A DNA stretch of 64,000 nt from a virus (taxonomy: Duplodnaviria > Heunggongvirae > Uroviricota > Caudoviricetes). The stretch is from IMG/VR virus record IMGVR_UViG_3300028454_000679. One strand, written 5' to 3'. Made by a program: the position numbers and the translations under genes. This document shows, in pieces, positions 11,894 through 47,736 of this stretch (the first letter of the stretch is position 1; each line of letters starts with the position of its first letter). The notes below the pieces were generated by a model. It worked only from the letters and a program-made list of their open reading frames with translations, ran no database searches and was not told the DNA's origin.

Positions 11894-12244
11894 ATGGCAG
11901 GAGATCAAAAAGTAAATGCAGCATCCTTATTGCTCAGCTCATTACAGACTAAAGAGAAGCAAGCACAAGAACCTCTAGCAACTCCAGAGACCTATGAGCA
12001 CGACTTTGGTGATGTAGACATGCAAGACTTGGAGTTTAACAGAGCAAAAGAACGTCAAGCTACACGAAACAAAATCCTACGAGAGGGTGATAACTTCGTA
12101 GTACAATCTGTGGAACGTAGAAGTAAGAAAAAGAACTTCATGTTTCCGGAATCCCTTGCTGAGAAGTTTGTTCAGGAAGCAAAAGCACTAAATGTTTCTC
12201 AAAACGAACTAATAGTCCAAATTCTTGAACAACGTTATAAGTAG
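11894..12244 (+). CDS. ribbon-helix-helix centromere-binding protein (ParG-like partner of ParA)
   Basis: Start codon abuts the parA stop. The C-terminal KKNFMFPESLAEKFVQEAKALNVSQNELIVQILE is RHH/CopG-like. Confidence 0.5.
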   Translation: MAGDQKVNAASLLLSSLQTKEKQAQEPLATPETYEHDFGDVDMQDLEFNRAKERQATRNKILREGDNFVVQSVERRSKKKNFMFPESLAEKFVQEAKALNVSQNELIVQILEQRYK

Positions 12245-12289
12245 CCTTGGTTGTTTAAAAATTATAATAGATAGATACAACTTATTATA

Positions 12290-12480
12290 CTTCTTTAAGA
12301 GAGGTGAAAATCCCCAAGTAACAAGGGTTTGCACAAGTTTACCCTTACCCTAAAGTAGAAACTTCTGTCCTAAAGATAGTAAACTACTGTATCGCTAGAT
12401 ACAAACTTCTTGTAGTGCAGTAGAGTAAAACTACTACATCTGGTGTATAAACTTCTGTATAGAAAGTAGAAAGTAGTGGC
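12290..12480. repeat. AT-rich region with repeated AAACTTCTGT / TAAACTACT motifs (possible origin-associated repeats)
   Basis: gaaacttctgtcc, caaacttcttgtag and taaacttctgtatag are direct repeats roughly 45 bp apart. Confidence 0.35.
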
Positions 12481-12539
12481 AGGAGAGTAGTAAGTTCAGC
12501 TAAATAGTGCCGAAGTGACTTTGTAAACCACAAAATATA

Positions 12540-12730
12540 GCAGTAACTGCCAAAATTCTACAAAAAGTACAGAACTTCAGTCAAAATTCTACACACTGAT
12601 TGGTAAAGCTTAGAGTACTCTACAAAATATACGGAACTTCAAAAAATCTACAAAATGAGCAGAACTTCCAAAAACGGGAAGAACAGTGAAAAATGTAGAG
12701 AAAGTTCTTGACAAAATGTAGAGACTATTG
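12540..12730. promoter_or_regulatory. iteron array plus promoter upstream of rep (putative replication origin)
   Basis: At least 3 direct repeats of ~22 bp, TCTACAAAAnnnnCnGAACTTC (12556, 12618, 12646), plus AAAATGTAGAGA x2. TTGACA (12708-12713), 17-bp spacer, TACACT, then RBS GGAGG. Confidence 0.5.
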
Positions 12731-12753
12731 TACACTCCTATTGGAGGTGTAGT

Positions 12754-13902
12754 ATGAGTAAAGAACCCACAACGTATGAGTATACATCGCTTGCTAAAGA
12801 CAACCTACTAATAAGTGCAAAGTATAGAGCAACACTACTAGAGCTTCGCGTGACCTATGCCTGCTTATTCATGATACAAAACAATAGCTATACAGAGAAA
12901 CCAGACGGCATCTATGTAAGCATGAAAGCAGGTGAACTCCGTGAGCTGATTGGTGCAAACTCGGGCTCTTTCTACAAGAGTCTTCTTCCTGTTGCTCAAA
13001 GTATGACAGCAAGGAGTCTGGGTATGGTAAACCCGGAGAATGAAGAGTTTGACTTTATTAGCCTAATAACTGAAGCCAAGTACAAAGATAGCGTGTTAAC
13101 AGTAGTCTTTAACAATAAGCTAAAGAAACATCTTGTTGCACTAAAGATGGACTATACAACAATACCAAAGCAGTACATAATGAAATTGAACTCAAATTAT
13201 GCTTTTAGGCTTTACGAGATACTGAAGAAGTCATGTTTTTATAGTAAAAGTTACAATGGGGAACGCAATGGCTATTTCCTCATACGACTCTCATTAGCAG
13301 AACTAAAATTGGATTTAGGTGTTGTAAATTCTGCACTAGACTCAGTTCAAAAAGAGCTACGTGGGTCCAAGACACCAAATTATGAAAAAGCTGTACAAGC
13401 CTCATCTGAAAAACTCTATGAGGACTGGTCATCATTCAAACGCTCATGTTTGGACAAGCCAATACGTGAGATAAACCAGAAAACTGACATACACGTTGAG
13501 TATGAAACTCATAGAGCCGGTCTAGGTGGTAAAGTGCATGCAGTGTCATTCACAGTGTATGTAAAAGAACTAGACAAGTCAAATACAACTGAAACCACCG
13601 GACTGACTGATCAAGAGAAGTTTTTATTTCACATGGAAGTTTACAAACTATTTGAGCAATACAAATTATCAATAGACTTCATTCAAAAACTCTCTGAGGC
13701 ATCAGACTACACCCTAGCCACACTCAAGGAAGTTGAAAAGGTTCTTAGAGCCTCTAATGGTGTGGCAAACATAGAGGGATGGCTTCTCAGTGCAGTAAAA
13801 GAGAGGTACTCACTACACCCTGCACAATCCGTAAACTTCAGGCAACGCGAGTATGATTACGATGAACTTGAAAGACGAATGCTTAACCGGAAAAGAACCT
13901 AA
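12754..13902 (+). CDS. replication initiator protein, Rep_3-like (iteron-type plasmid Rep)
   Basis: N-terminus YTSLAKDNLLISAKYRATLLELRVTYACLFMIQNN resembles the Rep_3/RepB motif (ARY.LS..E.RL.L..I..I). Iterons lie immediately upstream. Confidence 0.5.
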   Translation: MSKEPTTYEYTSLAKDNLLISAKYRATLLELRVTYACLFMIQNNSYTEKPDGIYVSMKAGELRELIGANSGSFYKSLLPVAQSMTARSLGMVNPENEEFDFISLITEAKYKDSVLTVVFNNKLKKHLVALKMDYTTIPKQYIMKLNSNYAFRLYEILKKSCFYSKSYNGERNGYFLIRLSLAELKLDLGVVNSALDSVQKELRGSKTPNYEKAVQASSEKLYEDWSSFKRSCLDKPIREINQKTDIHVEYETHRAGLGGKVHAVSFTVYVKELDKSNTTETTGLTDQEKFLFHMEVYKLFEQYKLSIDFIQKLSEASDYTLATLKEVEKVLRASNGVANIEGWLLSAVKERYSLHPAQSVNFRQREYDYDELERRMLNRKRT

Positions 13903-19232: not shown

Positions 19233-20498
19233 CTATTTATCTTCACTTTCTACATATGTGAAAGTTGCAGACTTAGCTATGCTGTCCAGAACCTTTGTTG
19301 ACAAAGCCATACGCTTTACAAAGTCCTCACCCTTCATAAACTCAGAGTCGTAGAGGGAGTAAACATCATCTGTACTAGACTCTTCGTATGATGAACCCTT
19401 TACAAGATCCTTTACGTAATTAGTTATCTCTTTCTTGGAGATAGTAGCATTCTCCTCTTCGGCAATCTTTAAAGAGATTGCTAAGTTTACTAAAGTGGAA
19501 TCCAAACGCTCTCTGGAATCCTGAACAAACTCCTCGTAAGTCTGACCACCGGACTGCTCGAGATACTCCTGTAGGGAGTTATATTGACTAGCATACATCT
19601 TAGTGTACTGATCAAGGTAAATTGCTAACTCCTGGTCTTTGACATCCTGTGAAATCTCAACGTCGGAGTTCTCTACAATCTCTGCAAGTAAAGTGGTACG
19701 TTTTGCCTGCTTCTCGTGGTAAGTATTGTAATCATTAGCAAAATCCTCACAATACTTCATAAACTCGTTAACACTCTTATAAGATGTGTTAGCTATAAGA
19801 ATATCGTCAGAAATAGTCTTATGGTCATACTTGATAGAACGCTCTGCACTTACAAGTGTGATTTTAAAGTCAGCCTTCTTCCCTGCAACATCGGAAGGTA
19901 GTAAGTTCTCATGTTCCTCCTTTTCAGGCGTTTCACCATCAAATGGGTCGAATTCCTCAGGAAGCTTCATACTAAACTTAAGAGGCTCTTTTGTTCCCAC
20001 TTTGTATCCTGTGAGACGTGCATCCACACCATGGCAGTATGCATCCTGTCCTAATTCATAATCAGGCAAAGTCATAGAACTGCCATTAAAAGTCTGACCA
20101 TCCACTGTTACTTCTATGTTGACTTTGAGCAAATCGCCAGTCTCAATCTTCTCACCAGCAGGCAATGTGTAGGTAGTGTCAAGCTGGCTAAGAACATAGT
20201 CGGCGTAATCCTCCTTTGTGAGTGTATCGTCATCCTTGTCAATTGTAACAGTTAAACCCTTATACTTACCAAGCTTTTTAACACAGTCAGCTAAATTGTA
20301 CTCAATAGCTTTCTTCGGTCTTCTGAAAGTACTCGTACTTTCAGATTTTTCCTTAACAACTTTCTTAGTGTCTTTACCATCTTTAAAGTACACGACACAG
20401 TTCATTAAAACTGATAGAATCAGGAAGGTGGCAAGTACTACGTTTGCTACTTTAAGAATTCTCACCTGCTGACTTAATTCTGTAATTCTTTTCTTCAT
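19233..20498 (-). CDS. trigger-factor-like protein (FKBP-type PPIase plus TF C-terminal-like domain), membrane anchored
   Basis: N-terminal TM, then ...GDLLKVNIEVTVDGQTFNGS (FKBP/trigger-factor PPIase pattern GD.V.ID..G..DGE.F.G), then a helical C-terminal region. Confidence 0.4.
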   Translation of the reverse strand: MKKRITELSQQVRILKVANVVLATFLILSVLMNCVVYFKDGKDTKKVVKEKSESTSTFRRPKKAIEYNLADCVKKLGKYKGLTVTIDKDDDTLTKEDYADYVLSQLDTTYTLPAGEKIETGDLLKVNIEVTVDGQTFNGSSMTLPDYELGQDAYCHGVDARLTGYKVGTKEPLKFSMKLPEEFDPFDGETPEKEEHENLLPSDVAGKKADFKITLVSAERSIKYDHKTISDDILIANTSYKSVNEFMKYCEDFANDYNTYHEKQAKRTTLLAEIVENSDVEISQDVKDQELAIYLDQYTKMYASQYNSLQEYLEQSGGQTYEEFVQDSRERLDSTLVNLAISLKIAEEENATISKKEITNYVKDLVKGSSYEESSTDDVYSLYDSEFMKGEDFVKRMALSTKVLDSIAKSATFTYVESEDK

Positions 20499-23927: not shown

Positions 23928-23939
23928 AACTAAAGGAAA

Positions 23940-24025
23940 CGGTTGGGGTGGGATTCGAACCCACGGACCCTTTCAAGTCGCTGATTTTCAAGACCAGTGC
24001 ACTAAGCCATCTATGCGACCCAACC
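23940..24025 (-). tRNA. tRNA-Ser (anticodon TGA)
   Basis: Manual fold: acceptor GGTTGGG/CCCAACC, D arm GCAT..GTGC, anticodon arm CTGGT-CTTGAAA-ATCAG, 16-nt variable arm, T arm GTGGG-TTCGAAT-CCCAC. 86 nt. Confidence 0.8.
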
Positions 24026-24027
24026 AT

Positions 24028-29114: not shown

Positions 29115-29314
29115 TTACACCCCCATTTAAAGGTGCTAAACAAAGGTTACCTATTAAGTGATAGAAGCTGCCTATCTTATTGTAAATACTATTTCTATCT
29201 TAAAACTTGATATATTGCATATCATGTTAATTGTGGTTTGTCACGATAACACTATCAAAGCCACTATGAGGACATTATGTTATTTGTTAGTGGTTCACCA
29301 CATGATAGCTTTAA

Positions 29315-29388
29315 TGGACCCCCTGAGACTCGAACTCAGGACCGACCGGTTATGAGCCGGTTGCTCTAACCAACTGAGCTAGAGGTCC
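29315..29388 (-). tRNA. tRNA-Met (anticodon CAT; elongator-type or tRNA-Ile lysidine type)
   Basis: Manual fold: acceptor GGACCTC/GGGGTCC (G1-C72), D arm GCTC-AGTTGGTTA-GAGC, anticodon arm ACCGG-CTCATAA-CCGGT, T arm CTGAG-TTCGAGT-CTCAG. Confidence 0.85.
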
Positions 29389-29572
29389 AAACTGTGGGCA
29401 AACCCTACAGTTTCTTATCCTTTGGGCGTTTCCGCTTCTTAAGGATAAATGCACCTGCGATAGGAGTTGCACCTAAAGCAAGGGCAGCTGCTGTACGTTG
29501 ATTATGTGACACAAAGTTCATCATAGTCTTAATCGTATCAGTTCTCTTCATAAAATCACTTCCTTTCCAAGT

Positions 29573-29680: not shown

Positions 29681-29883
29681 ACCCCACCGAAGTGGAAAGT
29701 TAGCTACAGCATTAGTGGGTGCAGAAGTAACTGTACTGCACCCAAAACTACGCTGAAAGGATAGCCCACCCACTTTCTAACAATACCTATGAGCTATTCT
29801 CTACCCAACTCAGGTATTCGTGGTTTCCTATAGGTAGAGAGGCTTCTATAAAAACAGAAAACCGGGCAGTACTGACCGCCCTA

Positions 29884-29956
29884 CTGGACTACCGGGATTC
29901 GAATCCGGGGAATGCAGGAGTCAAAGTCCTGTGCCTTACCACTTGGCGATAGCCCA
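29884..29956 (-). tRNA. tRNA-Gln (anticodon TTG), slightly non-canonical
   Basis: Manual fold: acceptor TGGGCTA/TAGTCCA (U1-A72, one GU pair), 3-bp D stem, anticodon arm CAGGA-CTTTGAC-TCCTG, T arm CCGGA-TTCGAAT-CCCGG with an A53/C61 mismatch. Preceded on the minus strand by hairpin GGGGCGG-TTCCA-CCGCCCC (29961-29982) and a T run. Confidence 0.6.
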
Positions 29957-30015
29957 AAAACGGGGCGGTGGAACCGCCCCGTAAAAGAGGGAGAAAAATA
30001 CCCCGTGATAGGGGA

Positions 30016-30067
30016 AGCATCTTCCAGGATTCGAACCTGTCTTGTTAGCCACTCTAACTGAAGATGC
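30016..30067 (-). ncRNA. tRNA-like element B lacking an anticodon arm (52 nt)
   Basis: Manual fold: acceptor GCATCTT/AAGATGC, D arm GTTA-GAGTGGC-TAAC, a 3-nt linker, T arm ACAGG-TTCGAAT-CCTGG, discriminator T. Preceded on the minus strand by hairpin GGGTGG-TTCG-CCACCC (30071-30086). Confidence 0.35.
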
Positions 30068-30413
30068 ATAAGGGTGGCGAACCACCCTCAAGGGAAACGT
30101 TCAATTGGTGCCTCTTAACGAAGCAAGTAATTATATAAGAAGATTTTTCATAACTCAGTATCCAGACTAGGCTATTTAGCAGTCCTCATGCTCCCAAAAC
30201 TCCTCTGAAGATTCATTTGGGTGCATATCATACTCTGCAGCCTCATACTGTAGCTGACGCTCATTTTCCAAACTAGCCTTGAGTTTTAAAAGGCTTCTAT
30301 CCGACTCTTTTCGTAAATCTTCATGACTGTACTCTATATCACCAAACTCTTAGGAGAGATGAACCACTTCGCTAATAAGTCTGTTTCTCTCAGATTCTTT
30401 CATTTTGCTCAAA

Positions 30414-31034
30414 CTACTGTACCTCCTGCAAAATACACCAATCACCTTTAGCGGAGTGTTTACTGCCCTTAGTGTAAGCGTAAATACCCTCTACAGCTTT
30501 CTTGCACTTAGAAAGTTTCCAGATAGCTGTCTTCTTATCCTTAGACAGTGTCACATACTTACTCTTATGTGCAATTGCTTTCTTAAACTTAATCTTTATA
30601 GTATAGTCAATTTTGGCTTCTTTGAATGCTGATGTAATTGCTCCCCACTCAGCACTGTCAGATTCATCAGTTGATGCTATCATAAATCCATCCTTGTGAA
30701 CAATCATGTTATCAGACGGCGTATTGTATGCTACACGCTGAGTGGTCTTATGATAGTAGCACTTCTTACCATTGTGAGTCCTTACTGGTAACTTGGCTAC
30801 TTCCGAAATATCCATACCATCAAGTTTTACTGAACTGTTGGAGTTCTGCACTTCTGCCAACTGCTTATCAATCTCTGCCTTGTCATAAAATGCCTGCGTT
30901 ATAACCTTTGCACTTTTTGCTTTCGTAGCATCAACTGTCTGTACAGTATCCGCACACCCTACAACCGAGAACGCTACAGCTAATGCTGCAGCTAACGCTA
31001 AAACTTTCTTAAACATCTCACACCTCCTTAACAC
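30414..31034 (-). CDS. secreted lipoprotein, hypothetical
   Basis: Signal peptide with lipobox (LAVAFSVVGCADT). Confidence 0.4.
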   Translation of the reverse strand: MLRRCEMFKKVLALAAALAVAFSVVGCADTVQTVDATKAKSAKVITQAFYDKAEIDKQLAEVQNSNSSVKLDGMDISEVAKLPVRTHNGKKCYYHKTTQRVAYNTPSDNMIVHKDGFMIASTDESDSAEWGAITSAFKEAKIDYTIKIKFKKAIAHKSKYVTLSKDKKTAIWKLSKCKKAVEGIYAYTKGSKHSAKGDWCILQEVQ

Positions 31035-31215
31035 ATTTAGGACTAATTACTGCAGTTGTGCTGTCACTGTAAGTAATATGGACTCTAGCGTAAGTTGGAT
31101 CGTAGAGCCCTGCCCTACGATCCCTGTCATGTCTCTCACGCTCCTTACGAATACACTCATCGAAGTAAAGTCGCTCCTCTGGTGTCATCTTATGTTTACT
31201 AAGTAAAATACTCAT
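31018..31215 (-). CDS. hypothetical small protein
   Basis: 65-aa ORF. Confidence 0.25.
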   Translation of the reverse strand: MSILLSKHKMTPEERLYFDECIRKERERHDRDRRAGLYDPTYARVHITYSDSTTAVISPKCVKEV

Positions 31216-31217
31216 TG

Positions 31218-32744
31218 TTACTCCTCTGTAAAATCCTGTGGGTTACACTCCTGCTGTTTAGTTTCCTGAGTCTCAGACTCCTGCTGAACAGTTGTTACAC
31301 TTAACCCATTCACATTAACGTTTTTATTTACCTTAGCATCATAGGTACTTGCCTTCAAAATTTCTCTCATGTCTACACCTGTCGCCTCTGTCATGGTGTC
31401 AAATACCTGATGCATAATTTGTGGTGCAATACCGGAAATCTGGGATGCACCTCCATCAGAGGACGAACCGCCATAAATGTTGATCTTGTCAATCTGAGAA
31501 ATCGGCTGTGCAATTTCTTTTGCCATATCTGGTAAAATACGAATCATCATTTCCGCTACTGCTGCTCCATTGTACTTTTTGTAAGCTTCTGCCTTCTTAT
31601 CCATTGCTTCGGCTTCCGCAATACCTTTGGCACGGATGGCATTTGCTTCTGCTTCACCTTTCGCCTTGATGGCTTCGGCTTCAGCAAGACCTTTAGTACG
31701 AATTGCTTCGGCTTCTTGTTTCTGCCGGTAAAGAACAGCTTCTGCTTCTTTCTGCTCCTGAACAAGCTTTGCTTCTGCTTCTTTTTCTGCTTTATACTTT
31801 TCAGCATCTGCAGTACGTTCAATCTGTGCAGCCAGTTCCTGCTGACGTACAAGCACTTCCTTCTGTTTTAACTCTGCTTCACGTTCTGCCTTGGCAATCT
31901 GAGCATTGACGGTTTCGGCTTCAATTGCCTTGTTTTGAATCTGCTCCTGAATACGGAATGCTGCTTCAGCCTCTGCACGCTTGGTATCCTCTATAACCTT
32001 TAATTCCGACTGCTTGATTGAAAGTTCATTCTGTTTTTCAGCGATCTGCTTATCAGCTTCCACTCTGGCATCATTCGCTTCCCGCTCTGCCTGTGCTTTT
32101 GCAACTTCTACATCACGGTCTGCATTTGCTTTAGCAATAGATGCATCTTTCTGAATTTGTGCCATGTTATCCATACCTAAAGCGTTAATTAAATCCTGCT
32201 CGTCGGTGATAGTCTGGATATTACAAGAGATAATCTGGATACCAAGATTATCCATATCCATTTGAGCCTTAGACTGAACCTCATCACCAAACTTTTTACG
32301 GTCATTACACAGCTCTCTTAACTTAATTGTTCCAACGATTTCTCTCATATTACCCTGAAGAGAATCTGTAATCGTTCTCACAATCTGCTCTTCCCCCATG
32401 TTGAGGAAGTTCTTCATAGCAACCTGAATACCTTCAGGGTCATTCTTAATGCGGATTTTTGCAACGGCATCAATATTGACACCTATAAAATCTTCCGTAG
32501 GGATAAAACCATTTGTTTTAATATCAACGGAAATCTGTCTTAATAGCAATTTGTCAATTCTTTCTAAAAATGGAATGCGAATACCTGCACGACCAACGAG
32601 AATCTTTGGATTCTTGCGGAAACCAGAGATTATGTACGCAATATCTGGTGGTGCCTTTACATACCCCATTGCACAAATAAGCAAAACTACAACTACGACT
32701 ACCGCTGTTGCAATAAACTGCGGTGTAAGAATTGTTTCTAACAT
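31218..32744 (-). CDS. flotillin-like SPFH/band-7 protein (FloA/YqiK type)
   Basis: N-terminal TM, an SPFH core (IISGFRKNPKILVGRAGIRIPFLERI...DAVAKIRIKND), then a ~200-aa Ala/Glu/Lys-rich coiled coil (AEAEAIRAKG repeats). Confidence 0.8.
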   Translation of the reverse strand: MLETILTPQFIATAVVVVVVLLICAMGYVKAPPDIAYIISGFRKNPKILVGRAGIRIPFLERIDKLLLRQISVDIKTNGFIPTEDFIGVNIDAVAKIRIKNDPEGIQVAMKNFLNMGEEQIVRTITDSLQGNMREIVGTIKLRELCNDRKKFGDEVQSKAQMDMDNLGIQIISCNIQTITDEQDLINALGMDNMAQIQKDASIAKANADRDVEVAKAQAEREANDARVEADKQIAEKQNELSIKQSELKVIEDTKRAEAEAAFRIQEQIQNKAIEAETVNAQIAKAEREAELKQKEVLVRQQELAAQIERTADAEKYKAEKEAEAKLVQEQKEAEAVLYRQKQEAEAIRTKGLAEAEAIKAKGEAEANAIRAKGIAEAEAMDKKAEAYKKYNGAAVAEMMIRILPDMAKEIAQPISQIDKINIYGGSSSDGGASQISGIAPQIMHQVFDTMTEATGVDMREILKASTYDAKVNKNVNVNGLSVTTVQQESETQETKQQECNPQDFTEE

Positions 32745-32796
32745 AATACTAAGTCCTCCTAATTCTTTAAAACTAATAGCTTATGCTATAATGAAC

Positions 32797-33375
32797 CTAA
32801 CAATTTCCTGAACAACCTTTTGCTTTTCTCAAACGACCAGTTGTACCGTATGCCACACGCCATTCCATAATTGCAAGAAGTAAAAAGACTAATGCTCCTA
32901 CAAATGCACCCACTGCTGCATATTTGTTACCCAAAGATACGGCTGCACTGGACTTATGCACAGCCTTCTTAAAGCCATTATCCTTAGCAAGGTTATACTT
33001 CTTTATAATCTTTGAAGCCTTATAGTATTTCGAAATAAGCTGAACAGAGTTTTTCTTCTGCTGAACTAAATAGTACTTATCCAAAAGTTTATCTGTCATT
33101 ACTTCAGAAGAAGTCTTCCCGTGCTTTAAAAATACTGTATCCTCATCCGTGTTGTCTGCAACATACTTTGAGTATGCATCTAATTTCTCTCCTGCTGTGG
33201 GAGTGGAAGTTGACCGTATACCGAAATATGATCCCAAGAGAAAACATACAATACACGTGAGAATACAACAACTTAAAATTATCTCTATCGGTTCATCTAT
33301 AAGTGCAACCGCGACAACAAAATACACAAGAATCATAAATAGTCCAATAGCAGCGAAAATATTCGTCATAACCAA
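32797..33375 (-). CDS. membrane protein upstream of flotillin (possible NfeD-like partner; unsupported)
   Basis: Two N-terminal TM segments and one C-terminal; no clear OB-fold motif. The call rests on position only. Confidence 0.3.
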   Translation of the reverse strand: MVMTNIFAAIGLFMILVYFVVAVALIDEPIEIILSCCILTCIVCFLLGSYFGIRSTSTPTAGEKLDAYSKYVADNTDEDTVFLKHGKTSSEVMTDKLLDKYYLVQQKKNSVQLISKYYKASKIIKKYNLAKDNGFKKAVHKSSAAVSLGNKYAAVGAFVGALVFLLLAIMEWRVAYGTTGRLRKAKGCSGNC

Positions 33376-33419
33376 GACCTCCTAATACTTTAAATCTGAT
33401 AGCTTATGCTATAGAAAAA

Positions 33420-34214
33420 CTAATTGAATACACAGCTGGTCATACTGAACACACGTTGGAATGCCTCCCAGTTCTCATCATGTATACCAGGCTTAATAGC
33501 GTAAACACATGTTATACCACTGTGTCTAAATGTATCCTTAAAAATCTGTGCAACAGTTGTAGGGTCTTGCTTAAACACGCCACACCCAAATGCACCTAGA
33601 ACAGCATACTGTACACCCTCTGTAAGTAAAACGTCCCGAATAAACTCCACACGCTTAACAAGCACCTCTTTGTTCCTACGTACAAGTGCATCCATAGGTT
33701 GCCCTAACTTATCCGCACACTTCGTGATGGCGTAAAAGTTAGGAGATGCACAGGTGAGTACATCAACACGTGCCATTTCTGAACCCCGCTTAAAGGTGAC
33801 ACCTTTAGAGTAAATGCACCTATCCTCATAGAATCCGTAGTGCCTATGAGTTTTATTGTATTCATAAAACTCTGACATATCAGTAAGGTAATGGTACAAA
33901 TTGCTCTCGTGGCACAGCGACTCCTCTTGTGCACAACTTCCCTCCAAAAACTTACCACCAGGGTTAGTAAAGGAAGCAAAGTTAAGTGCACAGACTTTTG
34001 CCCCTGTTGCTGCCGCCTTCATAATACAAGATACAGTGTCCTCGTGAACAACAGTCTGTGACGTGCTGATAAAAGAAGTCTGTCTAGTTGGTGGATACAA
34101 CTTACGGTCGTAGACCACACTAGAGCCTCTCGGCCATTCTTTCGTTTCCTGTATCCACAACTTTGCATGTGCTGCCCGCTCCTTACGGTCTCCCCAATAA
34201 ACTTGATTTGACAT
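33420..34214 (-). CDS. bacterial-type poly(ADP-ribose) glycohydrolase-like macrodomain protein (DUF2263/TIGR02452-like)
   Basis: NPGGKFLEGSCAQEESL matches the bacterial PARG signature GGG-X6-8-QEE. VLGAFGCGVFKQDP matches the macrodomain diphosphate-binding loop. Confidence 0.6.
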   Translation of the reverse strand: MSNQVYWGDRKERAAHAKLWIQETKEWPRGSSVVYDRKLYPPTRQTSFISTSQTVVHEDTVSCIMKAAATGAKVCALNFASFTNPGGKFLEGSCAQEESLCHESNLYHYLTDMSEFYEYNKTHRHYGFYEDRCIYSKGVTFKRGSEMARVDVLTCASPNFYAITKCADKLGQPMDALVRRNKEVLVKRVEFIRDVLLTEGVQYAVLGAFGCGVFKQDPTTVAQIFKDTFRHSGITCVYAIKPGIHDENWEAFQRVFSMTSCVFN

Positions 34215-34229
34215 ACCTTATCCTCCTCC

Positions 34230-34547
34230 TTAAATCCTCTCCTCTGACAGTGTTAATACTGACATACCGTCATTATGCTGAACAAGTCGGGAAACATGAT
34301 GCTTCTCTGCGTAACTGTACAGTGACCTGCAGTATTTGGATTTCTCCCAACCTTTCGTAAACACAACGAGGTCTGAGATCATCACTGCTTTAGTTGCCTC
34401 TTCCAAAGCTTGTGAGCTAAACTTAGACTTCGGTGTTATAAACTCAACATTCCTTGGGTCGTAATCAAACGTACTTAGCTCTTTGATAATTGCATTACAC
34501 TCTTTCTGACGCAGTCCCCATGCAGGATGACTAACAAATACTTTCAT
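34230..34547 (-). CDS. hypothetical protein (Rossmann-like, TIR/nucleoside-deoxyribosyltransferase-like start MKVFVSHP; weak)
   Basis: Start refined to MKVFVSHPAWG, with an AAAGGAGAG RBS. Confidence 0.3.
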   Translation of the reverse strand: MKVFVSHPAWGLRQKECNAIIKELSTFDYDPRNVEFITPKSKFSSQALEEATKAVMISDLVVFTKGWEKSKYCRSLYSYAEKHHVSRLVQHNDGMSVLTLSEERI

Positions 34548-34573
34548 AAACTCTCCTTTCTTTGCTTTATGAA

Positions 34574-34642
34574 AAGACACTGCAGGAATTGAACCTGCGC
34601 CACACGACACAGTCGTTGCTCTACCAACTGAGCTAAGTGTCT
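34574..34642 (-). ncRNA. tRNA-like element C with a 3-nt anticodon loop (TGT) instead of a 7-nt loop (69 nt)
   Basis: Manual fold: canonical acceptor AGACACT/AGTGTCT, D arm GCTC-AGTTGGTA-GAGC, T arm GCAGG-TTCAATT-CCTGC. The anticodon arm is ACGAC-TGT-GTCGT, a 5-bp stem with a 3-nt loop. Confidence 0.4.
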
Positions 34643-34648
34643 TAATAC

Positions 34649-34849
34649 CTAAAACACAGATGACTTACGTATCAATGTTGCGTTGATTGAGTCATCGTAC
34701 TTGTCTACTGTTGCATAATCTGGTGTAGCATTTTCAATTCTTGCATGGTCAGCTGCATAAGTAGACGACATACCATCTGTTCGGAAACAGTCGTCCATCC
34801 CAGAAAATCCTTCGAGCTGTCCAAGCTCTCTTACAATATCCTCAGGCAT
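34649..34849 (-). CDS. hypothetical small protein
   Basis: 66-aa ORF. Confidence 0.25.
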   Translation of the reverse strand: MPEDIVRELGQLEGFSGMDDCFRTDGMSSTYAADHARIENATPDYATVDKYDDSINATLIRKSSVF

Positions 34850-34884
34850 CGCTCTGTCCTCCTAATTTTTATAGTAATGCTGTT

Positions 34885-35658
34885 TTAAGGTATTCGACCG
34901 ATTGTATCAACACACACTGCAGTTACAGTAAAGCGTTGGTTGCCACCATAACACGTTGACAAGGTTACCCATTGCTCAAATGGTGTCTCTGGAACCTTAA
35001 CACCTTCTGGAGCTAAGAACTCGTCTCGAAAGTTGTTAAAGTCTACTGAATCCTCGAATTGAGTTTGGTAGAGTTTAGAATTCTTAGTGGTTTCCTCAAA
35101 TTTCACGATTTGAAATCTATAAATTTGAGTATTGGTGAATACCTGAAAAAACTTATGCTTTTTTAGATACCCTTTCTTCTGCTGATAAAACTTTAGTTTG
35201 CCAAACATAGACAAATCCTTCATATTGTGGCCATAAAGGATAGAATGCTTGTCAGTGAAGAATGGGGAATTGGTTGACTCCAGAATAATAGACCCTGAGT
35301 TGTTCTCTGTACCATTGTAAAGCTTGTACAGATACTTTGTATTACTTCTTGAATGTACAACAGGATAACTAATATCAATGTCCTCAAAGAATACCCAACC
35401 AACGACATCTGGATTAGTCTCCTGTAATGATTCAAGGTCCACAGTAATAAGCTTATTCCAGGGGGTGTAAACTTTTGGCTGTTCAGTGGATTCTAAAGCC
35501 CTCTGAGGTGCAACTGGTGTTACAACCTCTTTTACAAGCGTGTCATAAAACTTGGCACTTTCTTGATACTGAACAAACCCTAAAAACACTTTGAACCCTG
35601 TCAACCCTACGAGAATGCCTAAAACGGCGCACAGAAGATAACTTACTGTTTTTCGCAT
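34885..35658 (-). CDS. membrane-anchored hypothetical protein
   Basis: N-terminal TM; 257 aa. Confidence 0.35.
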   Translation of the reverse strand: MRKTVSYLLCAVLGILVGLTGFKVFLGFVQYQESAKFYDTLVKEVVTPVAPQRALESTEQPKVYTPWNKLITVDLESLQETNPDVVGWVFFEDIDISYPVVHSRSNTKYLYKLYNGTENNSGSIILESTNSPFFTDKHSILYGHNMKDLSMFGKLKFYQQKKGYLKKHKFFQVFTNTQIYRFQIVKFEETTKNSKLYQTQFEDSVDFNNFRDEFLAPEGVKVPETPFEQWVTLSTCYGGNQRFTVTAVCVDTIGRIP

Positions 35659-36144
35659 TCCTTATCGACCTTAATTATCTCTCCATTCTTGATTGTAAAT
35701 ACATACCCTTCTGATGCCAATCTCTCAATCTCCTCCATAGGTAACTTGTTAAGATCAGCAAGACCACCTGGTGTATTAAACACTGATGACTTATTCAATG
35801 ACATACTTCTGCCTCCTAAACAAATTTAAAACGCTTGTTAGCTTTCTTTACTTCGTCAACTTTCTCACCATGTGCACGAAGAAAAGAAAACGTTATTACT
35901 CCGACAAGGAGTCCTAAAACTCCTAAAACAATCTTCTTCATTACTAAGCTCCTTAAATTAAGAGAGCAGGGAAATTAGTCTCCCTGCTCTCTACTTATAA
36001 CATTTGATCTCTTTACCGTAGACTTCTCCATACACTGCATAGGATGCGAGTCTGAAACACCCTCCTCACCATACATGCATGCGTTTGTACCGTAGTTATA
36101 GTAGCACCCACTACATTCTTCTCTATCCATTGTAAATACCTCCG

Positions 36145-36831
36145 CTAATTAAAGACACTGGACTTTTTGATATCCTCATACTCCCACTGGCTAATCTTAA
36201 GAAAGGAGCTGTACGCATGATTAAGAGCCTCAACAGGGTCTTCCACTTCTTCAGTTAATAGTGTAGATGCTAAAGTAGCCACACTGTCCATATCATCAAC
36301 CACATACCAGCCAGCATTCTCTAGCCACTGCAACTCCTCTCGCAATTCATGCTCAGACAGTCCAGAATACTTTGAAGCTAATTCCCAGAACTCTGACTCC
36401 TCATGACCCCAGACATCAATAACGACATTATCCATAATACTCGCATCATTGGTGAGCAGAAATTCATTACTCTCATGTACTGCAGAGTAGAGAACAGTTA
36501 CTGAAGGGAATACATGATTGATGGAATCCGCGATGGTCTCCTCCGTACTTGCGTACTTCCACTCTGTGTGAAAGACAACACGATTCTCAGAAACTTCTGG
36601 CATCTTCACAACTTCTCCGGCGCACTTGTATTCCGGTGTAAAACCCTCGCCGTTCCAAGTAGCTACACCACTTCCCAGAGGAAACAGACCAACCCAAGGT
36701 GCTATAAAGTTAATACCATTTGGGGGTGAGATGCTCAACCATTTAGTAATAGTTTGGCACACTTTCGTAGCCTCTGCTTCATCCTCACACAGCAGAGTGT
36801 ATTCTGTAAAACAACTCTCTGACATACCCAT
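36145..36831 (-). CDS. acidic hypothetical protein
   Basis: 228-aa, E/D-rich. Confidence 0.35.
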   Translation of the reverse strand: MGMSESCFTEYTLLCEDEAEATKVCQTITKWLSISPPNGINFIAPWVGLFPLGSGVATWNGEGFTPEYKCAGEVVKMPEVSENRVVFHTEWKYASTEETIADSINHVFPSVTVLYSAVHESNEFLLTNDASIMDNVVIDVWGHEESEFWELASKYSGLSEHELREELQWLENAGWYVVDDMDSVATLASTLLTEEVEDPVEALNHAYSSFLKISQWEYEDIKKSSVFN

Positions 36832-36836
36832 ACCTC

Positions 36837-37346
36837 CTAAAAAATTTCCATAGCTTCAGTAGTGTGTATAGCAAAGATGCCAGCATCAGCAGCTTCCATA
36901 ACCTCAAAGTAAGAATCATCTACAAAGAAAACTTGGTCAAGCGGAACACCCTCACGCTCAGCAATAATCTTCATAACTAAAACTTTCTTTGAACGGCTAT
37001 CCACAGAAATAAGATCACCATGATTCGTAAAGATACCATCGTAACACTCTCTTAGACGATTATACTTTGCATTGTACTCGAAGCTATTTGAGCATTCTGT
37101 CAGACCGTAAATCTTTGAACCTGTGGTATGTAGTCGAGTAAGCAGCCGATGCATAGGTTTTGGAGCTTTACAATGAATGTAAGCATTATTACAGATATTG
37201 TATTTCAACCAGTCCTCATACTCTCTAACTCCAACAATACGTTTACCATTGTCCTTGTCATTGACACCGTTGTTGTTGTACATATGTAAAGACAGTAGAG
37301 TGTTATCCACATCTGCAAAAGCTAATCTAAATTTTTCTAAATTCAC
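36837..37346 (-). CDS. HAD-superfamily phosphatase
   Basis: Motif I FADVDNTL (DxDxT) and motif IV FFVDDS. Confidence 0.6.
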   Translation of the reverse strand: MNLEKFRLAFADVDNTLLSLHMYNNNGVNDKDNGKRIVGVREYEDWLKYNICNNAYIHCKAPKPMHRLLTRLHTTGSKIYGLTECSNSFEYNAKYNRLRECYDGIFTNHGDLISVDSRSKKVLVMKIIAEREGVPLDQVFFVDDSYFEVMEAADAGIFAIHTTEAMEIF

Positions 37347-37360
37347 TTCGATTCTCCTAA

Positions 37361-37876
37361 CTAATTCTTAACAACTCTGAAGTTCTTACCCAGTGCATTA
37401 CGCACACGTTCAACCTCACTCGGGCTAAAATCAATCTCGTCCTGTGCAAAACGTCTTTCTAACTCTTCTAGTTTCGCCTTAGAGTCTCTAGACACATACC
37501 GACTACGTCTAACATTCTCAGGAGCTTCAACAAATACTGCCTCAACATTCTCCGCACCAAAGTGTTCAATAGCAGCTAAAACGCCGTTAATATCTAATAC
37601 ACCTACGTAATCAGCTTGACTAACCTTCTGGCTGCAAGACCCATAGAACCATTCACCCTCTGTAGTGCTATGCTTGCGATACTCAAAGATATCACCAGTC
37701 TCAACACGCTTCAAAAACTCTTTCTCTGAAAGAAACCAGTAATCAACACCATCAACTTCTCCAGGTCTTGGAGGACGTGTTGTGCAAGTAACAAAATTTC
37801 TCCAACCTTTAGCAACATCTTGCTTAGTGAGATAGTCCTTGCCTGAAGCAGATTTACCGAAATAAATTCTAAGCAT
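37361..37876 (-). CDS. gmk: guanylate kinase-like nucleoside monophosphate kinase
   Basis: P-loop GKSASGKD, plus TTRPPRPGEVDGVDYWFLSEKEF (the guanylate kinase signature TTR.PR.GE.dG.dY.F). Confidence 0.7.
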   Translation of the reverse strand: MLRIYFGKSASGKDYLTKQDVAKGWRNFVTCTTRPPRPGEVDGVDYWFLSEKEFLKRVETGDIFEYRKHSTTEGEWFYGSCSQKVSQADYVGVLDINGVLAAIEHFGAENVEAVFVEAPENVRRSRYVSRDSKAKLEELERRFAQDEIDFSPSEVERVRNALGKNFRVVKN

Positions 37877-38205
37877 TAAACACCTCCGAAATTAACTGCT
37901 GTTGAACCAAACTGTGGTTGTGCCTGTGGTGTTGTAAACTGTTCCTCACTATCAACATCACCAAAGTCGTACTCCTCTAAACCCTCATCAGGTGCCGGAA
38001 CAGACTCTTGGGCAGTCTCACTATAGTATGGCTGCGCATTGGTTGTAAGTGATGTCTGGGAAGGAGTGGATTCAATAAAAGCTTCGAGAATACTCTTTCC
38101 TGCTGATGCTGTAAAAGTGACACCACAACCATTACACGTAGCTGCTTCATTACCATTAAAAGTAATTACATGTGACCCACAAAATGGGCAATTTTTAATC
38201 CTCAT
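37876..38205 (-). CDS. zinc-ribbon hypothetical protein
   Basis: CPFCGSHV...CNGCG. Confidence 0.35.
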   Translation of the reverse strand: MRIKNCPFCGSHVITFNGNEAATCNGCGVTFTASAGKSILEAFIESTPSQTSLTTNAQPYYSETAQESVPAPDEGLEEYDFGDVDSEEQFTTPQAQPQFGSTAVNFGGV

Positions 38206-38262
38206 ACTTAATTCCTCCTAAACTGAACTCTAGACTCCTAGAGTTATTAACTACACACTTAA

Positions 38263-38985
38263 CTAGTTAGCAACTCTACACTTGTTCTTCAATGCATATA
38301 ATTGTTTTTGATTCACATACTTATTTACAATATCCTCATCAAACTCTGCTAATGTGCACCCATAGTGAACAGTACCAGATGGACTCTCAGACACACGTAC
38401 AATTTTAGCAACCAGTTTGAAAGTAACCTGCTTGCTTAAAAACTCACCACTCAATTGAAGAGTGTCCGTAAACTGCACACCAACATAATCCCCTTCACTC
38501 AGTAGGCTAGAACTCTTTACAACTTCTAAAAGAATTCCTCTTGTTGATACATTCACAATGGTGCCATCTAAAGTACCCCTATGCTCACCTAGTGAGATAG
38601 TACAATTCCTGTATACTGGCACTCTGTACGCATTCCTTCTGTCAATTCTATGACCACTACCTCTAGCATCATAAATCATAAACGATTCTGTGCCTACAGT
38701 TCGACGGGAAACGGTTACATGATTCCACTTAAACGTATAACCTGAAACAGAGTCATTGGCTACTAAGGTGTACTCTAAATCCTCGGCATCAAATGCAATA
38801 ACTCTCCCAGAGTAACGAAGCAGGTCAGATACAACAAAGTGCTCACCTTCCCTAAGCGTAGGACGAACAACTTCAGCTTCATGCTCCTGCAGTGTCTTTG
38901 TAGTACCCTCTAAGACAGCTACAAGGTTTCCTCTTCTTGCATAAAGCGTAAAATGGGTATTACTGCGTAATTCATCTAGCTCCAT
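38263..38985 (-). CDS. YcgR-like PilZ-domain protein (c-di-GMP receptor)
   Basis: RIDRRNAYRV (RxxxR) and IVNVSTRGILL (D/NxSxxG) in the C-terminal half; the N-terminal beta-rich domain is PilZN-like. Confidence 0.5.
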   Translation of the reverse strand: MELDELRSNTHFTLYARRGNLVAVLEGTTKTLQEHEAEVVRPTLREGEHFVVSDLLRYSGRVIAFDAEDLEYTLVANDSVSGYTFKWNHVTVSRRTVGTESFMIYDARGSGHRIDRRNAYRVPVYRNCTISLGEHRGTLDGTIVNVSTRGILLEVVKSSSLLSEGDYVGVQFTDTLQLSGEFLSKQVTFKLVAKIVRVSESPSGTVHYGCTLAEFDEDIVNKYVNQKQLYALKNKCRVAN

Positions 38986-45586: not shown

Positions 45587-47605
45587 CTAAATTTTGTAGT
45601 GTGATAACGCCTGTGCAATAGACTCTGAGTTTTCAGAAAGATCGTCACTAATAGTACTAATCCTGCTGGATTCCTCTTTAACAGTTTGCGCCTCTTTCAG
45701 CAACTTTTGTGTTGTCTCCAGAACAAGTTGTGTACTTGCAGACTGCTCCTCTGTAACAGCTGCCATAGATGTAGCAACGTCATCCACTTCCTTAATACTC
45801 TCAACAACATCAGTAATAGCAGATTCTGTTGTTTCAACCTTGCTGTAAATCTCCTCGAAGGCACTGTCTGTCTCTGCAACAAGATTCATAGAGACTTCCA
45901 TATCAGCTGCTGATTGATTAGCCTGCTCAGATGCACTTTCAATAGATTGAGTGATTCCAAGAACAAGCTCATTAATATTCTGAACAGCCTCCGCAGACTG
46001 ATTAGCTAAAGAGCCTATTTCAGTGGCTACAACTGAGAATCCTCTACCTGCATCACCAGCTCTGGCAGCTTCAATAGAAGCATTAAGAGCAAGCAAGTTA
46101 GTCTGAGAGGCAATCTCTGAAATAGCTTGCGTAATCTCATCAATTTTCTTGGTACTTGCTTTCATCTCAATCATAGAATCGTTAAGATTCTTAACTGTGC
46201 TTTCCAAAGCTTGCATATTGGTGGTTACACTGGACATAGCTTGTTTACCAGTGGTTGTAATTCCAACAACCTCTTGCATCAACTCACCTGCCATACGCCC
46301 CTTGCTAAACAACTCCTGAGAAGATTGTGCCAAGTTTGTAGCACCATTTGCAATATCTTCAGTAGTTGTAGAGAAGTCATTCATGGTTGTATTCATAGAA
46401 TCCATACTACCAGCTTGTACATCTGAGGATTGCGATAGTAAATTGGAGGCTTCTGAAGACTGCTCACTATTACTCTGTAAAGTCGCTGAAATACTGGTAA
46501 GATTCCGCATCATATCTCGGGTAGACCCAATATAGTCATTCAACTTCTCACACAACGTAGTAATCTCATTATTACCGCTCACAACTACTTCTGTTGAAAA
46601 ATCACCATCGTAGATTTGTTCAATGGCACCGTTAATATCCTTCAGTGGTTTAGTGTACTTGCGAATAAGATAATACAAGAAAATGGCAAATAAAGTCGCT
46701 GCTGCAAATCCAACAACAATTGCAACTGTTACTGCCTTATTTACAGTTTTAGCAACAACAGACTTCGGTGTTAAGGAAAGTACAACCCAATTCGTATCAG
46801 CCACAGGTTCACTTGCTAAAACCCAAGAACTTCCATCAGCCTTAAATTCGTACACAGTACCCTTGGTGACACCATCACTTAACTTCACCTCTTTTAACAC
46901 ACTATCGTCTGTAGAGGTAAGTTTCTGGCTGATAAGTTTCATATTCTTTGCAGCAAGAATCTCAGTAGTGTTTGAGTCCACAAGGTATGTGCTACTACCC
47001 TCAGTACCCGCTCTAGCATTTAATTTATCAGAAAGCACAGAGAGGAAGATATCAATGGCTAAAACTTCATTGTCTTTTGTGTTCATAGATGCTGAAATAA
47101 CAAATGAGCCAGATTCATCATCCAAGTACGGAGCACCTGTTACAAGTTCCCCCTTAGCAGCCATAGCATCCTTAAACCATGGACGTTCTGATGGAACCCA
47201 ATCCTTCTCAGGAGCCCAACCAGAGCAGTCAATATAACGATATGGCATACCATTCTCGTTTGGCTCTTTTGCAAGTTTTGTGTCACCTAAATAGTAACCT
47301 GCAGGTGTTGATTCATCTACGTCCTTTGAGCCCATAAGAATATCATGAACATCATCGTCAGTTAAATCAGCAGACCGGAGTGCTAAACCAGTACTCTCTA
47401 CCTTGCCAAGCACGGAACCCCACCATGCAGAAATCTCTTCAGCAAAAGCCTCTGAATTCGATTTTAAATTGGTTTTTGTTAAGCGATTCATTTCGTACGA
47501 AAGTAGTGCTCCTGCTGCTGCAACAAGTGCAAGAACAACCGCAAAGACAAGTGGAATCGCTCTAAGTGTAATTGACATTCTTATAGTTTTTCTTTTCTTT
47601 GTCAT
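45587..47605 (-). CDS. methyl-accepting chemotaxis protein (Cache-like sensor + HAMP + MCP signalling domain)
   Basis: [37 protein letters not shown] is the highly conserved MCP signalling motif. Two TM segments flank a ~280-aa extracytoplasmic domain. Start refined to MTKKRK, with an AAGGAG RBS. Confidence 0.8.
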
Positions 47606-47736
47606 AGTAACTCCTTTTATTCGAGTATTTTTTAATTGTACAGGAATTACCTCCATACTCCCTAAATTGTCGATTACCCTCAACGCCGTCATGCAAGTAT
47701 CTGTGAATAAACACCCTCAAGTAATTCCTAACTGTA

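Follow-up and report, generated by a model that had tools for sequence, protein, structure and literature searches.

Bacterial poly(ADP-ribose) glycohydrolases (PARGs) far outnumber the bacterial poly(ADP-ribose) polymerases (PARPs), and the reversal of toxin-made RNA ADP-ribosylation is one answer to what they do in nature. What could such an enzyme do on a large mobile element? The question is raised by a gene at positions 33420..34214 of the IMG/VR virus record IMGVR_UViG_3300028454_000679, here a stretch of 64,000 nt (from here: the window). The initial annotation of this stretch had described an open reading frame (ORF) of 264 aa with two quoted motifs at this position. Translation confirmed the ORF and both motifs and placed the gene on the minus strand, a detail omitted before, where it runs from ATG to TAG. 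On the plus strand, the longest ORF across the same interval has at most 56 aa. The gene is full length and has a strong ribosome-binding site. Its GC content (44%; 42% at third codon positions) is close to that of its neighbours (37–44%) and of the window (40%) and thus bears no mark of recent insertion.

The 264-aa protein is a real, full-length member of the bacterial-type PARG family with an intact active site. It matched the Pfam family PF10021 (Microbial-type PARG catalytic domain, PARG_cat_microb/DUF2263) with 102.4 bits against a cut-off of 23.5 (E-value 3.7e-29) and NCBIfam TIGR02452 with 159 bits against a cut-off of 50 (E 1.6e-46), the latter match spanning residues 28–248 of the protein and positions 32–255 of the 266 in the model, hence nearly end to end. 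When the PDB was searched with the single sequence, solely two solved bacterial PARGs were matched, those of Deinococcus radiodurans (5zdb, E 8e-22) and of Thermomonospora curvata (3sig, E 2.5e-19), the latter being the founding bacterial-type PARG (DUF2263). A profile from 62 homologues matched the D. radiodurans enzyme at E 1.2e-43 and the T. curvata enzyme at E 1.6e-38. The AlphaFold2 model built on the alignment of these homologues had a predicted local distance difference test score (pLDDT) of 91.1 and a predicted template modelling score (pTM) of 0.90. In a Foldseek comparison with the PDB, ranks 1–13 were all taken by bacterial PARG structures (E 7.8e-20 to 4e-15), led by 3SIH with a template modelling (TM) score of 0.79, followed by generic macrodomains and eukaryotic PARGs at E of about 1e-6. 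The model and the Foldseek ranks point to a macrodomain fold with the PARG-specific helical extension. The earlier assignment to the bacterial PARG-like DUF2263/TIGR02452 macrodomain proteins is therefore upheld by both hidden Markov models, the PDB matches, the model and the active site; the structural match to the PARG/macro fold, on which that assignment had been made to depend, is the one to 3SIH.

The residues expected to act in catalysis are strongly conserved. Among the 120 nearest homologues G86, Q96, E97, E98, G207, A208, C211, G212 and F214 are invariant, and position 87 is a glycine in 119. The signature reads G86-G87-K88-X7-Q96-E97-E98, so that from the GGG-X6-8-QEE motif of the initial annotation the QEE element and its spacing stand, while the third glycine is replaced by lysine. 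The loop GGKFLEGSCAQEE aligns to the catalytic loop GGGFLGGAQAQEE of the D. radiodurans enzyme (DrPARG). At position 88, 57 of the 120 homologues have K, 27 have G and 23 have M; as lysine is the commonest state of the clade, its occurrence in place of the third glycine is normal here. We considered the GGK as a sign of an inactive enzyme and rejected this in view of the frequency of K at position 88 and the invariant QEE. The second quoted motif, predicted to be a macrodomain loop, corresponds to residues 205–218 and has its key positions invariant in the 120 homologues; the diphosphate loop G207-A208-F-G210-C211-G212-V213-F214 (pattern G-A-x-G-C-G-V-F) is invariant or nearly so in both the sets of 62 and 120. 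Judged by these residues, the protein is catalytically competent and apparently active.

A further position bears on the mode of cleavage. In the T. curvata enzyme (TcPARG), Arg268 and Asp261 form a 'ribose cap' that blocks the 2'-OH of the bound adenosine ribose and restricts the enzyme to exo-cleavage, and Thr267 of DrPARG corresponds to Arg268 (PMC6445106). Our profile alignment to DrPARG reaches the C-terminus, includes the T267K mutant chain, and equates Asn248 with DrPARG Thr267 and Pro242 with DrPARG Asp260; the equivalence of Asn248 and Arg268 rests on this alignment together with the statement in PMC6445106. The Arg-Asp cap that defines the TcPARG-like subclass of obligate exo-glycohydrolases is thus absent, the aligned residues being Asn248 and Pro242. 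The cap column in the 120 homologues contains N in 95, T in 17, A in 5, K in 3 and R in none. Since arginine does not occur there, the whole clade is predicted not to be an obligate exo-glycohydrolase.

The gene resides on a large replicon. Two contigs, of 234,325 bp (ENA ERZ27247021 k141_88331) and of 234,307 bp (JGI 3300019373 Ga0187895_1000023), encode the exact PARG protein, while a second gene of the window, 26 kb from the PARG gene, was found on both of these and on a contig of 234,317 bp (JGI 3300021319 Ga0214520_100095). On the ENA contig the PARG gene lies at 23.2 kb and the second gene 3 kb from the far end; the ends of this contig must therefore fall inside the window. This position and the near-identical sizes obtained from three assemblies that break at different points indicate that the window is part of a complete circular replicon of ~234 kb. 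A plus-strand island encodes a Rep3-type initiator and a 241-aa ORF that is probably a ParA-type ATPase (the ParA match was not assigned to this ORF individually). The nearest plasmid relatives of the initiator belong to a 242.7-kb plasmid of Butyrivibrio fibrisolvens (31% identity, E 2e-54), a 242.8-kb plasmid of Roseburia and B. proteoclasticus pCY186. The GC skew is strongly negative throughout the window, in which almost all genes lie on one strand, and turns briefly positive at 12–14 kb; the replication origin is probably located in this island.

Among the 50 window ORFs scanned against PHROGs there was no capsid, terminase or tail family. The reading of the window as a jumbo phage is consequently unsupported within it, a Rep3/ParA module being present instead; as ~170 kb of the plasmid lie outside the window, the element may still be a phage-plasmid. 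The nearest genomic relatives of the PARG come from metagenome-assembled genomes of Lachnospiraceae, and the best label for the host element is a Lachnospiraceae-type megaplasmid of a gut or rumen Firmicute. The mobile-element context assumed by the initial annotation fits this circular, Rep3- and ParA-bearing replicon, which is mobile or extrachromosomal. Nucleotides 30000..38000 of the window had no similarity match in INPHARED phages or PLSDB plasmids, and exact-match scans of IMG/VR returned nothing for a 39-mer from the PARG gene or a 52-mer from a tRNA-like element upstream of it, the element being therefore absent from the set scanned. The nearest protein among 5.8 billion clusters has an identity of 47%, and there are 1,618 matching proteins at E <= 0.001. 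The locus is thus a new, divergent PARG family member on an uncharacterised megaplasmid.

The gene families of the window comprise thymidylate synthase, TatC, signal peptidase, sortase, flotillin, a trigger-factor-like protein, a chemoreceptor, a radical-SAM enzyme, guanylate kinase, PilZ, RadC and DUF5688. Several 'cell-biology' genes are unusual on a mobile element (8791..10044, 19233..20498, 31218..32744, 34885..35658, 45587..47692 and others, all minus strand). This set consists of an L,D-transpeptidase, the trigger-factor-like peptidyl-prolyl isomerase, flotillin, sortase, the Cache/HAMP chemoreceptor, TatC, signal peptidase, PilZ, guanylate kinase, thymidylate synthase and a MoxR-like AAA+ ATPase with a DUF2201 metallopeptidase/VWA protein.

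For the possible substrates, the characterised relatives provide a guide. In their mechanism, a glutamate of the signature loop promotes the attack of water on the oxocarbenium intermediate at C1'', releasing ADP-ribose (PMC8120803; PMC6445106). Poly(ADP-ribose) (PAR) is cleaved by the PARGs of T. curvata, H. aurantiacus, C. difficile CD160 and D. radiodurans (PMC8120803, PMC6445106, PMC5966428), whereas DrPARG leaves mono-ADP-ribose on Glu or Ser uncleaved (PMC6445106). In 2025, bacterial PARGs were shown to be protective enzymes: SCO0909 of Streptomyces coelicolor and DRB0099 of D. radiodurans remove the 2'-OH-linked ADP-ribose that the toxin RhsP2 places on RNA, where the linkage is the 1''-2' ribose-ribose bond also present in PAR, and they also remove 5'-phosphate-linked ADP-ribose from RNA or DNA ends; when expressed in E. 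coli, they give protection from RhsP2 equal to that by the cognate immunity protein (PMC11833690).

By homology to these enzymes, Glu97 and Glu98 of the GGK-X7-QEE loop would hydrolyse the C1'' bond of a bound terminal ADP-ribose. Likely substrates would be ribose-ribose O-glycosidic ADP-ribose, i.e. PAR and 2'-O-ADP-ribosylated RNA, and in addition ADP-ribose capping the phosphate ends of RNA or DNA. With Asn248 in place of the Arg cap, the enzyme may, like that of D. radiodurans, cleave within chains as well. It would be a stand-alone 'eraser' on the megaplasmid, with no cognate transferase detected nearby, and would protect plasmid and host cell by reversing ADP-ribosylation of nucleic acids (chiefly RNA) or polymers. 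The modification could stem from ADP-ribosyltransferase (ART) toxins of competitors or from abortive-infection or defence systems, so that the PARG would serve as an orphan enzyme of immunity or repair. Family, fold and active site come from direct comparison, while we infer substrate and biological role from the relatives. A counter-toxin or counter-defence role is plausible. In our judgement the best explanation, held with confidence somewhat above even, is a competent PARG that, as an orphan, erases ADP-ribose linked to ribose or phosphate on RNA or polymers and so protects plasmid and host.

The orphan character of the gene is supported by searches for partners. ART, PARP, sirtuin (SIR2) and DarT families were absent among the window ORFs of >=120 aa and, over the 20 kb surrounding the gene, from the precomputed Pfam matches, and no PARP-like transferase was present in the precomputed Pfam matches of ~6 kb beyond the high end of the window. 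Neither PARP nor ART was seen in the Pfam-annotated neighbourhoods of the PARG homologues, which in some loci covered selected neighbours. No system of PADLOC-DB v2 was detected among the PARG and nine ORFs of the surrounding 8.5 kb, where the neighbours gave marginal matches alone (E 0.0045–0.0068), and no family of PHROGs v4 or PADLOC-DB v2 matched the PARG protein at E <= 0.01. Bacterial PARPs are rare, with 28 sequences in 27 species (PMC5966428). Members of the PARG family were found in at least 568 GTDB species, and most of the 80 loci listed are from actinobacteria, Streptomyces included; set against 27 species for the PARPs, the 568 imply that most members of the family are orphans.

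Relatives on mobile elements are numerous. Of the PLSDB plasmids, 27 carry the family, Deinococcus MP1, B. proteoclasticus pCY360 and plasmids of Lactococcus being examples. It also appears in 19 phage records of GenBank, among which are Bacillus phage G, a 642-kb phage and every Lak megaphage of the collection, and in at least 178 IMG/VR contigs, mostly from large phages and most of them 90–340 kb in size. One closer homologue lies in a locus with conjugation genes (PrgI, VirB4-like, Fic, primase); others lie in a phage early region or beside tubulin and RNA-polymerase beta genes, which are typical of jumbo phages. An accessory 'conflict' gene would agree with such a distribution over megaplasmids, large phages and conjugative elements. 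In the two closest homologues (47% and 44% identity; L172 578..2554 and L173 4422..5757), an HNH endonuclease gene directly follows the PARG gene.

Conserved partners were sought by all-against-all clustering of the ORFs in 84 loci, representing 28 PARG lineages at 70% identity. No neighbour family occurred in more than 7 of the 28 lineages, from which it follows that the PARG travels alone. The 105-aa ORF next to our gene, the membrane protein, the sortase and other neighbours are private to the window element; of the window's neighbours, flotillin (in one other lineage) and guanylate kinase (in two) were the sole ones to recur. Genes for tRNA or RNA processing were located within 6 kb of the PARG gene in 10–11 of the 28 lineages, on large-phage contigs, and encode a CCA-adding enzyme, a Thg1-like protein, an RNase T-like exonuclease and DUF2828/DUF7788 proteins, besides weak matches to RNA ligase and Pol-beta nucleotidyltransferase. 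One or both of two metallophosphoesterase families were found near the PARG in 10 lineages and tRNA genes in 6.

Examples of such loci with RNA genes (from the IMG/VR loci L007–L086) are L033 5986..10747, L058 4983..7636, L037 5983..8167, L057 5800..9116 and L018 9578..11071. The string of PARG, metallophosphoesterase and a fam-5 protein recurs in two lineages, and in L033 it continues to a flotillin that is 37% identical to the flotillin of the window, 2.4 kb from the PARG gene.

Several points weigh against the orphan-eraser explanation. The characterised enzymes from which the substrates are deduced are 24–28% identical in the Foldseek alignments. To our knowledge, RhsP2-type toxins are known from Pseudomonas and not from Lachnospiraceae. 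The neighbours in the window are sortase, membrane protein, flotillin, guanylate kinase and PilZ, with no RNA ligase, kinase, phosphatase or CCA-adding gene. As ~170 kb of the plasmid lie outside the window, of which ~6 kb beyond its high end were seen, a partner transferase elsewhere on it is possible. The family is also common on chromosomes, so that a plasmid location alone implies no conflict role. Finally, the association with RNA-repair genes in the phage loci is suggestive and could reflect a general clustering of accessory genes.

Table 1. Coordinates of the elements of the PARG gene and of other features of the window
Feature	Position	Strand	Remarks
Shine-Dalgarno GGAGGAGG	34222..34229	minus	read from sequence; 7 nt 5' of the PARG ATG
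Catalytic loop GGKFLEGSCAQEE	residues 86-98, 33921..33959	minus	translation; contains the catalytic pair E97-E98
Diphosphate-binding loop VLGAFGCGVFKQDP	residues 205-218, 33561..33602	minus	translation
Asn248, 'ribose cap' position	33471..33473	minus	profile alignment to DrPARG chains
105-aa ORF	34230..34547	minus	stop 15 nt before PARG start; called as gene in three assemblies
tRNA-like element	34574..34642	minus	Rfam tRNA 55.9 bits vs gathering score 29; 26 nt 5' of the 105-aa ORF
Membrane-protein ORF, 190-192 aa	32797..33375	minus	about 50 nt 3' of the PARG stop; own AGGAGG
Flotillin/SPFH (Band 7)	31218..32744	minus	PF01145 E 1.6e-21, PF15975 E 7.9e-09
Rep3-type initiator (WH1+WH2)	12754..13902	plus	family scan
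Main plus-strand island of the window	11168..13902	plus	holds the 241-aa ORF and the Rep3 initiator
tRNA-Ser-UGA	23939..24026	minus	canonical tRNA gene
tRNA-Met-CAU	29314..29389	minus	canonical tRNA gene
tRNA-Gln-UUG	29883..29957	minus	canonical tRNA gene

Read 5' to 3' on the minus strand, the gene order is sortase, a 66-aa ORF, the tRNA-like element, the 105-aa ORF, PARG and the membrane protein, followed by flotillin, a 65-aa ORF, a lipoprotein and the tRNA-Gln and tRNA-Met genes (Table 1). The 105-aa ORF is probably co-transcribed with the PARG gene. It is a near-ORFan: a word-indexed search returned the sequence itself alone, and exhaustive HMMER searches found one credible relative (91 aa) among 1.8 billion representatives. 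Against Pfam, DUF4406 (E 0.057) remained below threshold and is a weak lead, and the single-sequence AlphaFold2 model (pLDDT 59) had no Foldseek match below E 0.01. The membrane-protein ORF downstream matched no family.

The tRNA-like element has a perfect acceptor stem, D arm and T arm, whereas its anticodon arm consists of 13 nt (ACGAC-UGU-GUCGU) and is thereby 4 nt short, leaving a 3-nt loop or a 3-bp stem with UGU as 'anticodon'. The cloverleaf has a minimum free energy of -26.2 kcal/mol (z -2.95), ARAGORN made no call on the element, and its T arm together with a U run scores as terminator-like. The element may represent a tRNA in decay, serve as a terminator or as a signal for processing by RNase P/Z, or act as a decoy. 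In the plasmid, the PARG may be co-expressed as one unit with this tRNA-like RNA and the near-orphan 105-aa protein. A scan of 30000..38500 for promoters and terminators yielded counts equal to the shuffled expectation and was uninformative.

Some further observations concern this region. Three neighbouring minus-strand ORFs (3' ends 33420, 34649 and 36145) have ...(K)SSVF(N) or ...TSCVFN as their C-terminus, and MSLNKSSVFN is the start of a fourth ORF (35760..35804). The DNA before those stops shares a loose AAGTC-N3-4-TGT-N-TT pattern, which may be a short junction motif or chance. We considered the C-terminal '...SSVFN' endings of the three ORFs, with their loose AAGTC..TGT.TT..TAG pattern, as a signal and judged them too weak to interpret. 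Two genes 5' of the sortase, a very acidic protein of 228 aa without family match is encoded at 36145..36831 on the minus strand.

Other explanations for the gene have to be weighed. The protein could be the housekeeping partner of an endogenous PARP, encoded on the host chromosome or elsewhere on the plasmid, and turn over PAR. Pairs of PARP and DUF2263 proteins with a working PAR metabolism are documented (PMC5966428; PMC6445106), Herpetosiphon, C. difficile CD160 and D. radiodurans being the models; moreover, DrPARG itself is encoded on a megaplasmid, and much of the present plasmid lies outside the window. The searches described above, in which no PARP or ART was found among the window ORFs of >=120 aa, in the 20 kb around the gene or in the annotated neighbourhoods of its homologues, speak against such a partnership, as does the rarity of bacterial PARPs relative to the PARG family, and we consider it improbable.

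Alternatively, the protein could be a component of RNA or tRNA repair that, while cleaved tRNAs are being repaired, clears ADP-ribose by-products or end-blocks (5'-phosphate, Tpt1/KptA-type) in conjunction with the element's own tRNAs. DRB0099 shares its operon with genes for an RNA/DNA ligase and for an HD-polynucleotide kinase, and it removes ADP-ribose from 5'-phosphates (PMC11833690), and Macro domains were proposed to take part in NAD-dependent RNA repair in jumbo phages (PMC7824862). The recurrent CCA-adding, Thg1-like, RNase T-like and DUF2828 genes and the tRNA genes of the phage PARG loci point in the same direction, and in the window the tRNA-like element is 360 nt upstream of the PARG gene and tRNA-Gln and tRNA-Met 3.5–4.1 kb downstream. 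On the other side, the searches of the window yielded neither an RNA ligase nor Pnk, KptA or RlaP, and the association in the phage loci is uncontrolled. This repair function has, in our estimate, a small chance of being the correct one; it overlaps the orphan-eraser explanation, from which it differs mainly in the source of the ADP-ribose.

More specifically, the clade with the Asn cap and GGK loop might be dedicated to counter-defence on mobile elements. ARTs of host immune or abortive-infection systems would modify tRNA, rRNA or mRNA, and the enzyme would erase the ribose-linked ADP-ribose from RNA; an alternative target would be the 1''-2' bond of the Thoeris signal 2'cADPR, a cyclic ADP-ribose. 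Macro domains occur in 56% of jumbo phages and were proposed to act on ADP-ribose signals (PMC9503650). In the papers searched, we found no experimental precedent for an anti-defence protein of the PARG type and no paper testing a PARG-class enzyme from a phage or plasmid. A dedicated function of this kind is rather unlikely; if true, the protein would be the first PARG-class anti-defence protein.

DarT attaches ADP-ribose to the thymidine base, and its antitoxin DarG is a macrodomain of a different, ALC1/TARG1-like class. The initial annotation had named DarT as a target, in which case the enzyme would strip ADP-ribose from thymidine in single-stranded DNA (or other base- or protein-linked mono-ADP-ribose) and rescue the replication of the element. 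A PARG is a macrodomain, the gene is on a mobile element, and phage hydrolases that neutralise DarTG exist: T4-like phages encode an orphan antitoxin of the NADAR type (PMC11825919), and chimalliviruses encode a macrodomain resembling DarG2 (PMC13309987). These enzymes belong, however, to other classes, NADAR and DarG/ALC1-like. According to a review on DarT and DarG (PMC9967889), human PARG, MacroD1 and ARH3 could not remove DarT-made DNA ADP-ribose, and the inability of DrPARG to cleave Glu- and Ser-linked mono-ADP-ribose argues in the same sense. The top structural matches were PARGs only, other macrodomains being ~14 orders of magnitude worse, and no DarT-like or PADLOC match was located nearby; the arrangement of a DarG-type antitoxin, an ALC1/TARG1-like macrodomain beside DarT, was not found, as the protein is of the PARG class and no ART was found in the window or in the 20 kb around the gene. 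The DarT target is therefore not borne out; reversal of DarT-made DNA ADP-ribosylation by this PARG is unlikely, and we would give the whole anti-DarT reading, protein targets included, little credence.

Very improbable, too, is a glycosidase that opens the 1''-2' (or 1''-3') bond of 2'cADPR or 3'cADPR to linear ADP-ribose and thus silences TIR signalling of Thoeris. The bond is chemically of the type that PARG cleaves in PAR (PMC11833690), RyDEP, a phage glycosidase of a different fold, was reported in 2026 to do exactly so (PMC13232231), and Macro domains are predicted to target cADPR-type signals (PMC9503650). We found no evidence of any PARG accepting an intramolecularly cyclised substrate, the PARG pocket binding an extended terminal ADP-ribose, and neither NARP nor NAD-salvage genes were seen beside the gene. 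Hardly credible at all is an inactive ADP-ribose-binding module serving as sensor or sponge: some macrodomains are purely readers (PMC9503650) and the third signature glycine is a lysine, but Q96, E97, E98 and the diphosphate loop are invariant and GGK is commonest in a clade under clear purifying selection.

For this locus, the analysis yields a secure annotation and a correction of the probable target, from DarT-modified DNA to ribose-linked ADP-ribose on RNA or polymers. Beyond it, very large mobile elements of Firmicutes from gut and rumen carry a distinct clade of PARGs, which no transferase accompanies. The viral and plasmid relatives form a concrete and cheap test set for the question whether PARG-class erasers serve mobile elements against ADP-ribosylating immunity.

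Compared with known systems, the protein resembles the NADAR-type anti-DarTG1 and chimallivirus DarG2-like proteins of phages as an eraser without a writer on a mobile element; those are other enzyme classes that cleave base-linked ADP-ribose from DNA, and the window protein falls in neither family. It is closer to the PARGs of the Lak megaphages, Bacillus phage G (gp114), Butyrivibrio proteoclasticus pCY360 (BPR_RS16755) and the IMG/VR contigs (27–46% identity), which likewise occur as lone genes in accessory surroundings on mobile replicons of very large size. Unlike those of the large phages, the present copy is on a Rep3/ParA plasmid that is not a recognisable phage, and the neighbours vary by locus.

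With TcPARG (3SIG/3SIH), the best structural match, it shares a profile alignment over residues 31–256, the QEE loop with corresponding spacing, the GAxGCGVF loop and a helical extension at the N-terminus (helix 10–26 in the model), but it differs by an identity of 28%, the replacement of the third glycine by lysine and the change of the Arg268/Asp261 cap to Asn248/Pro242. DRB0099 (5ZDA–5ZDG) is the best sequence match in the PDB and is also plasmid-borne (on megaplasmid MP1). It, too, lacks the Arg cap, having Thr267, and shows both endo and exo activity (PMC6445106). In contrast, DRB0099 belongs to a DNA-damage-induced operon of ligase, PARG and HD/Pnk (PMC11833690), whereas the neighbours of our gene are unrelated, and DrPARG is without the N-terminal helix (PMC6445106), which the window protein appears to keep in the model. 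SCO0909, finally, is chromosomal and actinobacterial, while the window protein belongs to a Firmicute clade rich in phages and plasmids. Both are stand-alone PARGs, SCO0909 being without a cognate transferase and the window gene having none detected nearby, and SCO0909, likened here by description, is the functional model that we adopt (PMC11833690).

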